From Mycobacteriales bacterium (GTDB lineage: Bacteria > Actinomycetota > Actinomycetes > Mycobacteriales > CAJCIY01): 64,000 nucleotides of DNA. The stretch is taken from contig DASVGV010000081.1 in the NCBI GenBank assembly GCA_036379355.1, positions 6,923 to 70,922 of the forward strand, read 5' to 3'. The notes under the pieces were generated by a model. The model had not been told where the DNA came from. It saw only the letters and a list, made by a program, of their open reading frames with translations, and searched no databases. Both the position numbers and the translations under genes were made by a program. Positions 14,721 to 21,430 of the stretch are shown here, piece by piece (the stretch's first letter is position 1; each line of letters begins with the position of its first letter).

Positions 14721-17183
14721 GTGAGCGTCGCCGCCGTCCCCACACCGAGAGACGGCGGCCGCGTGCCGTTGCTGTCGGTGCAGGGGCTGGACGCCCACTA
14801 CGGGCCGCGGCAGGTGCTGGCGGGCGTCGACCTGGATGTGTACGCCGGCGAGATCGTCGCGCTCGCCGGGGAGAACGGGGCAGGCAAGTCGACGCTCGTG
14901 CGGTGCATTGCCGGCGACCTGGCGCCGGCGTCGGGAAGCATCCTTCTCGACGGTGAGCGAATCCGCTTGGGACGCACGGCGATCGCTCGCCGGGGAGTAG
15001 CGGTCGTCTGGCAGGACCTGGCGCTGTGCGAGAACCTCGATGTGGCGGCCAACCTGTTGCTCGGACGCGAGCGCCCGCGCCTGCTGCTGTCCGACGCACG
15101 GTTCCACGCGGCGGCCGCCGCGTTGCTGCAGTCGCTGGACATTCCGATCACGGACACGGCTCGGCCCGTCGCGGCCCTGTCGGGTGGGCAGCGCCAGCTC
15201 GTCGCGGTGGCACGGGCGATGCGGGACCGGCCACGACTGCTGATCCTCGACGAACCCACCGCGTCCTTGGGCGTCGTGGAGTCCAGACAGGTCGAACGGC
15301 TCATCCGCAGGCTGCGTTACGAGGGAACGACGATCGTGCTCGTCTCGCACGACATCGACCAGATGTTCCGCCTGTCCGACCGCATCAGCGTGCTCCGGCA
15401 CGGGCGGCTGGTCGCGGACGAGCAGACGGCCCTGCGGCATCCGGACGAGATCGTGGCCTTGATGTCGGGCCAGCCCGTCGACTCCTCCCCGCGCCGCCAG
15501 CTGGACCGGCTGCACAGCCTCGTCGGAGAGCTCACGTCGACGGCGCCGTCGTCCAGCCTGCCCGTGATCTTGTCGGCGCTCGGGACGGCGCTCGCCGCCG
15601 ACAACCTGTGCATCCACCTGCTCGACGGCGACCGGTTGCGGCTGACCGCGGCGGTGGGCATGCCGGCGCAGCTGATGGCGGCCTGGCGGGACCTGCCGAG
15701 CGGCCTGGCCGGCGGGCCGGTAGGAGCGGCCGCGGAGCGTGACGCGACGGTCATCGACCACGACGTACGGTCCGCCCAGACGTGGGCCCCCTTCCGCGCC
15801 ATCGCCGAGGATGCCGGGATCCGCAGCTCGTGGGCCGTACCGGTCACCGGAAGCGGGGGGCTCGTCGGGGTGATCACCGTGTTCCGGCGCAACCTGGGCA
15901 CCCCGCACCGCGACGAGCTCGCGCTCGTGACCCTCTATGCCGGGTACGCCGCGAGCACGGCCGAACGCGACGGGCTGCTCGGTGAGGTCACCGCACGCAA
16001 CCGGGTGCTGGAGACGATCCGCGTCGTGCTCGAGCAGCTGGCGGTGTCCGTGCCGCTGTCGGCCGGGCTCGATGTGGCGATCGACACCCTCCGCGGTGGG
16101 CTCGCCGCCGAGGAGGTCGCACTGATCTCCCGGTCGGGCGGTGACCCGCGGTGCCGCGGCTGGTCGGGCGCCAGCCCGGACGGCGTGCGACCCAGCCGTT
16201 CGGTGCTGGCCGCATGCCAGGCCGACGCGGCGCGGCCGTCGGCGGAAGCCGTTCGGGCGGTACGCACCCCGTCGCACCGGGCGCTGGTCGCGGACGTCCC
16301 GGCCCCGGGCGGGCCGCTCGCGCTGGTCGCGGTCTGGCCGCACGACCCCGTACCGGAGGGGGACGGGGCGCCGCCGGACGCGCACGCCCTCCTCGAGGAC
16401 GCCGCGCGTTCCCTGCAGCTCGCGCTCGAACGAGAGACGTCCGAACGTGCCCATCGCGAAGCGGCAGCGCTGCGCCGTTCCCAGGACCTTCAGCGCGACT
16501 TCCTCTCCCGCCTCAGTCACGAGCTGCGCACGCCGCTGACCGCGATCCATGGGTACGCGGACACGCTGTTGCAGTCGGACGTCATCTGGGACCCCGAGTC
16601 GCAGCGGCGTTTCCTGGAGCGGATCACGGCCGAGTCGGCGCGGCTCGGCCGGCTGGTCGGCGATCTGCTGGACCTGTCCGCGATCGACTCCGACACCCTG
16701 CGCCTGCAACGAGACTGGTGCGACGTGGCCCTGGTCGTCGACGCCGCCCGGGCCTGCCTGCCCATGGGCAGCCTCGGCCGGGTCCACGTCCGGTGTGCCG
16801 AGCTGCCTGCAGTCTGGGCCGACCACGATCGCCTCGAGCAGGTGCTGGTGAACCTGATGGACAACGCGATCCGGCACAACCCCGGCGGGACCACCGTCCG
16901 TGTCGCGGCGTCGGCGACAGATCGCGGAGCGGTCAGGATCACGGTGACGGACGATGGGGTGGGCCTGCCGGAAGGGATCGACGGCCCCGACGGGGGACGA
17001 CTGCGCGGCCCCACCTCCGGCGCGGGCCTCGGGCTCTCCATCTGCCGGGCGATCGTGGTCGCCCACGGCGGCAGCTTGCGTGCCCGACGGCGCGCGCACG
17101 GGACGTGCTGGGAGATCTGCCTGCCGGTCAACGGCCGCGCGGACGAGGCGAGTGCGGCGAACGGGACCGTCGACAGTGGCTGA
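14721..17183 (+). CDS. soluble hybrid protein: ABC-transporter ATPase domain + two GAF-like regions + HisKA/HATPase_c histidine kinase
   Basis: 820 aa with no hydrophobic segments. The ABC domain has Walker A 'GENGAGKST' (nt 14868-14894), Q-loop 'VVWQDLAL', signature 'LSGGQRQ', Walker B 'LLILDEPT' and H-loop 'VLVSHD'. Then come GAF-like '[20 protein letters not shown]', H-box '[16 protein letters not shown]' (His codon 16518-16520), '[10 protein letters not shown]', 'DDGVGLP' and '[13 protein letters not shown]'. An alternative start is GTG 14763. Confidence 0.85.
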   Translation: [820 protein letters not shown]

Positions 17184-20098: not shown

Positions 20099-21430
20099 AT
20101 GTCGATGCCTCCCTCCCAGGCCGAGCTGCCGGCCGAGTCCACGCCCACCGACGTCGGCTTCGTCGACGAGGCCGCGGCGGGCTCGCCGGACCGGTTCGCC
20201 GTCAACGAGCTGACGGCGAACTCGTTCGTCGAGTACGCACGCGCGCTGGGCAAGCGCATCCGCAGCGGTGAGAGCGGTGCGCTGCCGGTCGTCATCGGCC
20301 TCGTGGTCATCGTGGCGATCTTCCAGTCACAGAACTCCAAGTTCCTGTCCACCGGCAACCTGACCAACCTGATCGAGCAGTCCGGCGTGTTCGTCATCCT
20401 CGGGATGGCGGAGGTCTTCGTCCTGCTGCTGGCCGAGATCGACCTGTCCGTCGGGTACGTCGGCGCGGTGGGCGCGACCGTCACCGCCGAGCTGGCGACG
20501 AACCCGCACAACGTCAACTGGTTCCTGGCCTGTCTGGCCGGCCTGGGTGTGTGCGCGGTCATCGGTGCGGTCCAAGGGTTGCTCATCACGCGGCTCGGCC
20601 TGCCGTCCTTCGTCGTGACCCTGGCGGGTCTGCTCGGCTTCGAAGGGGTGCTGCTCTACCTCATCCAGCACGACAAGGCGGCTACCGGCGGCACGATCCC
20701 GGTCACGAACAAGGTGATCAACGACATCATCAACGGCTCGTTGTCGAACACCGTGGGCTGGATCGTGATGGTCATCGTGGTGGTCGCGTACGGCGCCATC
20801 AGCGTCCTGCAGAACCGCCGGCGCCGCGCGAGCGGGCTCGTGACTGCGCCGCTCGCGCTCGTCGCCATCAAGGTCGGCGCGGTGGCGGTCGTCGGCGTCG
20901 TGCTCGTGCTCGTCTGCAATGCCAACCGCGGCCTGGGGCTGACCAAGCTCGAAGGGGTGCCGTGGATCGTGCCGATCCTGCTGGTGCTGCTGGTCGTCTA
21001 CTCGGTGCTGCTCGGGCGCACCCGGTTCGGCCGCTACCTGTACGCGATCGGGGGCAACGCCGAGGCAGCCCGCCGTGCGGGCATCAGCCTGAAGACCATC
21101 CGGCTGTTCGCATTCGTCCTGTGCAGCGTCACCTCCGGCCTCGGCGGCATCGTCTACCTGTCCCAGCTGGGGTCCATCTCCAGCAACGTCGACGGCGGCA
21201 ACCTCGTGCTGTACGCCATCGCCGCCGCCGTCATCGGCGGCACCAGCCTGTTCGGCGGGCGCGGCAAGATGATCCACGCGCTCCTGGGCGGCCTCATCAT
21301 CGCCGCGGTCTACAACGGCATGGGCCTGATCGGGCTGAGCGCGGCCGCGCAGTTCATGGTCACGGCGCTGGTCCTGCTGGCGGCCGTCACGGTCGACGCC
21401 GTCTCCCGCCGCGGCCGGACCAGCGCCTGA
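20099..21430 (+). CDS. sugar ABC transporter permease (XylH/RbsC-type, with a ~60-aa cytoplasmic N-terminal extension)
   Basis: 443 aa with multiple hydrophobic helices. Motifs typical of CUT2 permeases are 'GMAEVFVLLLAEIDLSVGY' and 'GRYLYAIGGNAEAARRAGI'. Confidence 0.9.
   Translation: MSMPPSQAELPAESTPTDVGFVDEAAAGSPDRFAVNELTANSFVEYARALGKRIRSGESGALPVVIGLVVIVAIFQSQNSKFLSTGNLTNLIEQSGVFVILGMAEVFVLLLAEIDLSVGYVGAVGATVTAELATNPHNVNWFLACLAGLGVCAVIGAVQGLLITRLGLPSFVVTLAGLLGFEGVLLYLIQHDKAATGGTIPVTNKVINDIINGSLSNTVGWIVMVIVVVAYGAISVLQNRRRRASGLVTAPLALVAIKVGAVAVVGVVLVLVCNANRGLGLTKLEGVPWIVPILLVLLVVYSVLLGRTRFGRYLYAIGGNAEAARRAGISLKTIRLFAFVLCSVTSGLGGIVYLSQLGSISSNVDGGNLVLYAIAAAVIGGTSLFGGRGKMIHALLGGLIIAAVYNGMGLIGLSAAAQFMVTALVLLAAVTVDAVSRRGRTSA

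Follow-up and report, generated by a model that had tools for sequence, protein, structure and literature searches.

Several two-component systems are known in which a histidine kinase takes its cue from a transporter. BceS, a kinase without its own sensing domain, relies on its partner ATP-binding cassette (ABC) transporter and induces it in response to transport activity (PMC4513084; 10.1101/2020.02.28.969956), and in the PstSCAB–PhoU–PhoR system a relay informs the kinase of the importer's state, and the kinase in turn governs the importer's regulon (PMC9239213). Other sensor kinases depend on a substrate-binding protein (SBP), as in XylFII–LytS, ChvE–VirA, LuxP–LuxQ and TorT–TorS, of which the LytS system induces the xylose importer xylFGH (PMC8050422). 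In the SLC5/STAC histidine kinases (CbrA, CrbS and RpuS), a transporter module is fused to a kinase that regulates uptake genes (PMC9100948), while KdpD, a kinase with an N-terminal nucleotide-binding domain, controls the transporter with which it is paired (PMC11018627). The ways in which kinases are informed by transporters (Bce, Pst/PhoU/PhoR, DctA/DcuS) are under active study, and the work is made hard by contacts that are transient and lie in the membrane. Here we analysed a 64-kb stretch of contig DASVGV010000081.1 from a Mycobacteriales bacterium, referred to below as the window, which encodes a soluble histidine kinase headed by an ABC-type nucleotide-binding domain (NBD) together with a response regulator and the three components of a sugar-type importer. 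An original prediction made for this DNA had proposed that the kinase NBD is a close paralogue of the importer's own ATPase and might pair with it. The real finding is the conserved five-gene module, not a duplication of NBDs.

The module resembles each of these systems in part. As with BceS and BceAB, the kinase is tied to the ABC transporter that it would induce. However, BceS is embedded in the membrane, meets the permease there and has no fused NBD, and BceAB is a MacB/FtsX-type resistance transporter rather than an SBP-dependent importer; in the window, the kinase has no transmembrane segment and the permease belongs to the BPD_transp_2 family. PstSCAB signals through a separate adaptor, PhoU, and a membrane-anchored PhoR, whereas the window kinase is soluble and carries its NBD covalently, with no phoU gene in the module. 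With the XylFII–LytS group the module shares a Peripla_BP_4 sugar-binding protein as the likely source of the signal to a two-component system. In that group the SBP contacts the periplasmic domain of a transmembrane kinase, but sequence prediction and the structural model of the window kinase revealed no transmembrane segment, signal peptide or periplasmic domain, and hence no periplasmic ligand-binding domain. The fused part of the SLC5/STAC kinases is a membrane symporter domain, whereas here it is a cytoplasmic, energizing ABC ATPase. The N-terminal domain of KdpD is not an ABC NBD, and KdpD is anchored in the membrane, unlike the window kinase. In none of the compared systems (Bce, Pst, LytS/VirA, SLC5/STAC, KdpD) does the kinase carry a fused ABC NBD; a review of SBP-dependent signalling mentions no ATPase- or NBD-coupled case (PMC8050422), a full-text literature search found no description of an NBD–histidine-kinase fusion, and databases name the kinase merely "ATP-binding cassette domain-containing protein". 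Transporter-coupled two-component sensing is already known; an NBD-headed kinase module with a defined operator was previously uncharacterized. A natural fusion of an importer NBD to a soluble kinase is also a more tractable object for this question, with five genes and a defined promoter readout, and with closure, docking and output measurable together. It may also lend itself to the modular construction of synthetic sugar sensors.

The five genes lie co-directionally on the + strand at 14721-21430, in a window of 70-75% G+C. The kinase gene (14721..17183) probably starts at the GTG at 14721, giving 820 aa as in its homologues; a GTG at 14763 would give 806 aa. On the 806-aa form, Pfam detected ABC_tran at residues 20-167 (111 bits), GAF, HisKA at 577-643 (67.9 bits) and HATPase_c at 687-789 (73.8 bits), and the full domain order is ABC_tran–GAF–GAF-like–HisKA–HATPase_c. 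An AlphaFold2 (AF2) model, built from a 16-sequence alignment (pLDDT 73, pTM 0.39), set the limits of the NBD at residues 18-250, of a linker helix at 257-268, of the GAF domain, which has a long exit helix, at 280-390 and of the GAF-like domain at 446-540, followed by a 60-residue helix leading into the dimerization and histidine phosphotransfer (DHp) domain (554-656) and by the catalytic domain (665-805). On the DNA, the NBD (residues ~17-250) occupies 14769..15470 and a family-specific linker 15471..15557. The GAF domain (residues 280-390), its connecting helix and the second GAF-like domain (residues 446-540), for which Pfam GAF/GAF_2, AF2 and Foldseek agree, span 15558..16340. The long signalling helix, the DHp domain (H-box SHELRTPL; AF2 helices 554-616 and 625-656) and HATPase_c span 16380..17135. 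The protein and its partner thus have what a HisKA-class kinase with an OmpR-family regulator should have, namely the H-box histidine, HATPase_c with its N and G boxes, and a cognate receiver with a winged-helix output domain. NCBIfam has no curated family that spans the whole kinase. In Foldseek searches the best full-length matches to the C-terminal two-thirds were bacteriophytochrome GAF-PHY-HK proteins, and the N-terminus matched the importer NBDs CbiO, FbpC, PotA, MetN and MalK; a PDB sequence search returned mostly double-NBD exporters.

The kinase NBD carries a Walker A motif, the Q-loop WQDLAL, the signature LSGGQRQ, a Walker B motif and the H-switch SHD. Across 16-25 kinase homologues the A-loop aromatic residue, Walker A, the Q-loop, LSGGQ, the catalytic glutamate of Walker B and the H-switch are all invariant, which suggests that selection maintains NBD function in this domain. 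The best-conserved block of the domain (0.88) is the stretch after the Q-loop, which ends in N.lLGrE and agrees with the consensus of single-NBD transporter ATPases. In solved importers this stretch touches the membrane subunit. The NBD end and the linker (HPDDvvAL.SGQ...) are unique to the kinase family, do not occur in transporter ATPases, and hold the invariant residues S249, G250, D254, R258, Q260, L261, R263, L264 and H265. No unfused family of kinase-type NBDs was seen among 1.84 billion representative sequences, in which the short matches all went back to the fused kinase, as fragments, frameshifts or a chimera. Two of the short matches deserve mention. One, a 229-aa fragment from the representative library (P0348), has a kinase-family NBD with degenerate motifs (signature LPSGQRG, and an H-switch reading ATRD, with the histidine replaced), and by these motifs some members of the family may have lost ATP hydrolysis. 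The other, of 293 aa (P0315), follows the kinase-type NBD over its first two-thirds and continues after Walker B with the C-terminus of another ABC family, through either natural recombination or a chimeric assembly.

More than 120 relatives of the kinase were listed that are full-length, share its architecture and are 58-79% identical to it; they come from metagenomes or from metagenome-assembled genomes (MAGs) labelled Mycobacteriales or Streptosporangiaceae. A genome scan with one genome per species yielded at least 25 loci, all of them, among the matches listed, from MAGs and mostly from Actinomycetota, including Solirubrobacterales. In all of the ~22 loci with enough flanking sequence the order kinase, regulator, SBP, ATPase, permease was constant, and the kinase was strictly linked to the transporter. 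Comparison of the locus flanks revealed no other conserved neighbour. The five genes form a self-contained "sense-and-import" module of uncultured soil and peat Actinomycetota. Among the matches listed, a single module lies outside Actinomycetota bins (locus L016, 8001-15068): its contig is frameshifted and binned as Bryobacterales, with kinase, regulator and SBP each in two frames, which suggests long-read frameshifts, a pseudogenized copy or a mis-binned contig.

The transporter half of the module varies between loci in ATPase type, permease number and SBP number, while the kinase NBD is constant. Four loci (L004, L006, L017 and L021) carry a second transporter subtype, whose SBP is ~48% identical to that of the window. 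Three of these (L004, L017 and L021) have two permease genes and L006 ends at a contig edge; the transporter genes lie at ~11.2-16.7 kb per locus. By SBP, permease and ATPase the four loci group as a clade; by kinase NBD, kinase core or regulator they do not, their kinases and regulators being of lineages that elsewhere go with the one-permease subtype. This pattern implies swapping of transporter cassettes downstream of a constant kinase-regulator-operator unit. Distance matrices gave the same division into two halves: kinase core and regulator correlated at r = 0.95 and SBP and permease at 0.89, with values of 0.04-0.39 between the halves. A further arrangement was observed in locus L012 (11576-17435), where the operator is followed by an SBP, a permease, a divergent single-NBD ATPase, a second SBP and a second permease. 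The ATPase of this locus is just 43% identical to the usual type, the operator is kept, and only the second permease has the module-type EAA loop described below.

Since the original prediction had taken the kinase NBD for a close paralogue, and possibly a recent duplicate, of the neighbouring ATPase, we compared the two domains directly and in a phylogeny. The peptide strings it quoted for both proteins are present exactly as written. BLASTP aligned the kinase with the operon ATPase at 43% identity over 238 aa (E = 3e-54), and in a multiple alignment the first 100 aligned residues were 45% identical, in agreement with its estimate of ~45%, against 40% for the whole NBD. The shared stretch QDLAL.(D/E)NLD...N..LGRE was likewise found in both domains; it is a signature of the single-NBD branch, the N-terminal halves of double-NBD CUT2 ATPases reading QE..LfPdLsvAEN instead. 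By these comparisons the homology is real and far above chance, and the two NBDs belong to the same sugar-importer (CUT2-like) lineage, yet the identity is at the usual level inside an ABC subfamily. When annotated plasmids were searched by tblastn with the kinase NBD, single-NBD ATPases of Rhizobium, Kitasatospora, Embleya, Streptomyces and Microvirga were 44-47.5% identical to it, so that its identity to unrelated plasmid ATPases equals or exceeds that to its own neighbour. The neighbouring ATPase was itself 50-64% identical to the same stand-alone ATPases, which come from unrelated operons.

For the phylogeny we aligned 25 kinase NBDs, 21 module ATPases and 9 single-NBD ATPases from other contexts with 55 N-terminal halves and 12 of 52 C-terminal halves of double-NBD CUT2 ATPases. 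Kinase NBDs were on average 40.0% identical to module ATPases, 41.4% to the other single-NBD ATPases and 36.0% to the N-terminal halves, whereas module ATPases and other-context single-NBD ATPases shared 52.7%. Kinase NBD and ATPase from the same locus were no closer (40.7%) than pairs from different loci (40.0%), and the window ATPase ranked only 26th of the 97 non-kinase NBDs by identity to the window kinase NBD. In a neighbour-joining tree with 200 bootstraps the kinase NBDs were monophyletic (99.5%), module and stand-alone single-NBD ATPases grouped together (100%), a group of kinase NBDs and module ATPases was never recovered (0%), and the group of all three received moderate support (69.5%). 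The kinase NBD is thus placed with the single-NBD sugar ATPases rather than with the halves of double-NBD enzymes, with that same moderate support. No trace of duplication or gene conversion was found in the DNA, where alignment is confined to the Walker A and signature blocks and no shared word exceeds 12 nt. The original prediction had named a kinase NBD no closer to this ATPase than to unrelated ones as grounds for abandoning the paralogue idea, and this is what the tree gave; the identity ranking, the tree and the DNA comparison together led us to reject recent duplication and gene conversion. The kinase NBD is probably an old, separate branch, sister on this tree to the whole clade of single-NBD sugar ATPases.

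The remaining genes of the module encode an ordinary-looking transporter. The SBP gene (18037..19248) starts at a GTG at 18037, preceded by the ribosome-binding sequence aggagg at 18026-18031, and encodes a Peripla_BP_4 lipoprotein with a signal peptide and the lipobox LAVTAC. The ATPase (P0121; 19251..20093, starting at the ATG at 19251) has 280 aa and one ABC_tran domain, and the permease (20099..21430; 443 aa) is a BPD_transp_2 protein with multiple hydrophobic segments. The nearest NCBIfam models were xylF (131 bits) and ChvE (109 bits) for the SBP, XylG/YtfR for the ATPase and GguB (222 bits; GguB/XylH-like) for the permease, all scores being far under the equivalog cut-offs. SBP and permease are those of a classical CUT2 importer, but in place of one ~500-aa ATPase with two NBDs there is the single-NBD protein. 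The original prediction was right about its size of ~280 aa; the single NBD is not the anomaly it was taken for, because operons of SBP, single-NBD ATPase and ~420-aa permease commonly occur without the kinase, in Kitasatospora, Rhizobium and Arthrobacter. The window SBP, ATPase and permease are ordinary members of these stand-alone XylFGH/Frc-like importers, which have a similar EAA loop; unlike the window module, the stand-alone operons carry AraC or ROK regulators and lack an NBD-bearing kinase. Module and stand-alone ATPases differ at 6 discriminating alignment columns, none of them in catalytic or dimer motifs, and we rejected the idea that the module ATPase is adapted to a kinase partner. 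In ABC importers, NBDs are expected to dock on the EAA loop. In the window permease the loop RTRFGRYLYAIGGNAEAARRAGISL (21017..21091) was recognized by its conservation across module loci and is a putative NBD docking site. Every module locus, whatever its transporter subtype, has at least one permease whose loop hardly departs from the consensus RTRFGRYvYAIGGN(A/P)EAARRAG(I/V), and a recognizably similar loop occurs in stand-alone transporters.

The search of the representative library for unfused kinase-type NBDs also returned matches of 800-890 aa with two NBD stretches (P0283, P0284, P0303, P0309, P0321, P0364, P0372, P0377 and P0383). We rejected these as kinases; they are natural fusions in which a BPD_transp_2 permease stands before or after two ABC NBDs. 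Eight of the nine resemble CUT2-type double-NBD ATPases, while P0364 has the branched-chain-amino-acid ABC C-terminal motif PF12399 and may belong there instead.

The regulator gene (17176..17871) overlaps the kinase stop by 8 nt and encodes an OmpR/PhoB-family protein (Pfam Response_reg and Trans_reg_C; NCBIfam MtrA/PhoB-like). A scan for sigma-70 promoters and terminators found nothing. By comparing the spacers between regulator and SBP genes across the window and loci L001-L024, we instead identified a predicted operator of four tandem direct half-sites, which in the window read GTTTA-N6-GTTTC-N15-GTTTA-N6-GTTCA (17893-17939, + strand). The cross-locus pattern is (G/A)TTWA-N6-(T)TTYA-N15-GTTWA-N6-GTTWA, and half-site spacings peak at 11, 31 and 42 nt. 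In its strict form the pattern matched exactly once per locus, on the + strand of this spacer, in 16 of 23 loci, and a degenerate operator is visible in most of the others, including L001 and L012. Unrelated loci totalling 1.96 Mb gave no match, and the window gave no further one; neither its kinase gene nor its downstream GH42-galTK genes have an operator upstream. A TAnnnT element follows the last half-site by 12 nt in all 16 loci (16/16; 13 nt in the window), and the window copy, TACGGT (17953..17958), is the -10 element of a transporter promoter in which the operator sits in the -35 region. Direct repeats one helical turn apart over the -35 region are the geometry of class-II activation by PhoB/OmpR proteins. 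The repeats found here match that geometry, and therefore the regulator most likely activates, rather than represses, the transporter operon. Operator and -10 box together make a ready-made reporter promoter.

How might a soluble kinase learn of the transporter? MalK and MetN, both among the Foldseek matches, are NBDs with dimerizing C-terminal extensions below the transporter. In the mechanism that we infer, as regards docking, signal direction, activation and sugar identity alike, the kinase would receive its input through the NBD. A kinase dimer would replace the ATPase dimer on a permease dimer, its two NBDs docking on the EAA loops in a geometry like that of MalK or MetN, with the C-terminal regulatory domains hanging below the NBDs. 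Sugar-loaded SBP would drive ATP-dependent closure of the NBDs, and the closure motion would travel via the linker and the GAF helices to the DHp bundle and switch the kinase on. The kinase would then phosphorylate the co-translated OmpR-family regulator, which would bind the four half-sites that take the place of a -35 box and activate the SBP-ATPase-permease operon. A cytoplasmic kinase could in this way sense extracellular sugar or transport flux, and the neighbouring ATPase would be an ordinary homodimeric energizer rather than an obligate partner of the kinase NBD. Transporter-coupled signalling remains the leading idea because the kinase is soluble and strictly linked to the transporter. 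That the kinase dimer docks on the permease and reports SBP-driven closure is the reading we tentatively favour, at somewhat short of even odds. Consistent with it, the post-Q-loop stretch is conserved, and the EAA loop is near-invariant while ATPase type and permease and SBP number vary; apart from GAF, the intact importer-type NBD is the only input domain of the kinase. The operator at the importer's promoter, the invariant family-specific linker and the lack of an unfused kinase-type NBD family among the representative sequences also fit this reading. A more specific version, in which kinase dimers on a subset of permease dimers form a signalling pseudo-transporter and NBD closure mechanically produces histidine autophosphorylation via the GAF spine, is possible but more doubtful. 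If true, it would be the first case of the ABC "tweezers" motion serving as a direct, covalently wired input to a two-component kinase.

Several observations weigh against docking. Overall identity of the kinase NBD does not follow transporter subtype. Kinase-NBD distances do weakly follow permease distances once the kinase core is controlled for, which speaks for docking, but this Mantel signal (partial r = 0.29; p = 0.034 without correction, among about ten tests) is exploratory and would not survive multiple-test correction. The helix after LGRE (residues ~118-136) is kinase-specific and unlike that of the transporter ATPases, so that the permease interface could be altered or lost. The AF2 monomer, as its pTM indicates, is weak on domain packing, which leaves conservation to carry the case for docking, and the sole clue to the sign of regulation is promoter geometry. 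Finally, the real sensor could be a GAF domain that by itself binds a sugar or metabolite inside the cell.

This last point leads to the strongest rival, in which ATP brings the kinase NBDs together as dimers in the cytoplasm, so that energy charge gates the kinase; the inducing signal is the imported sugar, or a metabolite of it, bound by the GAF domains, and the NBDs never touch the transporter. The absence of a transmembrane segment, a tandem GAF-like sensory core like that of phytochrome-type kinases, an NBD whose identity does not co-vary with transporter subtype, the kinase-specific post-LGRE helix and the precedent of KdpD as a kinase with an N-terminal nucleotide-binding domain (PMC11018627) all fit such a soluble switch. 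However, it leaves unexplained why the NBD should be most conserved in the importer-specific stretch after the Q-loop, where it is identical to the transporter consensus, why the NBD should come from the very importer lineage that the kinase regulates, and why the EAA loop should be invariant in otherwise variable transporter cassettes. We consider it rather unlikely.

The heterodimer of the original prediction, with one kinase NBD and one ATPase protomer on the permease dimer, either powering transport or converting occupancy into phosphorylation, fares worse. CUT2 systems ancestrally use two non-identical NBDs, and the N- and C-terminal halves of the double-NBD ATPases are indeed only 29% identical. 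The motif LSGGQRQ.VAVA and the D-loop region DEPTA.LGV are also common to kinase NBD and ATPase, making a mixed sandwich dimer sterically plausible. Against this, unrelated ATPases resemble the kinase NBD as closely as its neighbour does, and both NBDs have full consensus motifs, so that neither has a degenerate site. Stand-alone ATPases, which work with no kinase, can hardly be told apart from those of the module, and the ATPase has been swapped in L012 (43% identical) and in the four subtype loci without a matching change in the kinase NBD. Distances of kinase NBD and ATPase do not track each other (partial r = -0.03), and kinases are dimeric and would thus bring two NBDs of their own. The intact sites, the ATPase swaps and the lack of co-variation make an obligate kinase:ATPase heterodimer improbable. 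Least probable of all, by a small step, is a sequestration like that of MalT by MalK, where the idle transporter silences the regulator. Here a kinase NBD bound to the idle transporter, or to free ATPase, would hold the kinase inactive until transport releases it, or the reverse; this shares the linkage and interface conservation of the docking model, from which sequence data do not distinguish it, and has a precedent for idle-transporter silencing in PstSCAB–PhoU–PhoR (PMC9239213), but the intact catalytic glutamate and H-switch suggest that the kinase NBD cycles ATP rather than only binding it.

As to the substrate, the original prediction had read galactose or a galactoside from genes further downstream. 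A GH42 beta-galactosidase (23657-25786), GalT (25783-26760) and GalK (26757-27896) are indeed encoded there on the + strand. A SAM methyltransferase gene and a PaaK-like acyl-CoA ligase gene lie between them and the transporter, and a gene for a penicillin-amidase-family protein follows, all on the + strand (21455-30371). The three galactose genes, with ends overlapping or abutting, look like an operon of their own. The flanks of the other module loci held no counterpart of the aconitase-like, methyltransferase, PaaK-like, GH42 or GalT genes, and the only match to GalK was a weak one, on the opposite strand in L015. These neighbours are specific to the window and carry no copy of the operator, and we rejected the substrate inference drawn from them. 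An Rfam search of the window gave no match.

Upstream of the module (9082-14669) lie malate synthase G and a GlcD-like FAD oxidase, encoded divergently on the - strand, and a 647-aa aconitase-family protein. In the window no promoter was identified for the kinase operon; the aconitase-family gene ends 51 nt before the kinase open reading frame, and the operon may be read through from it.

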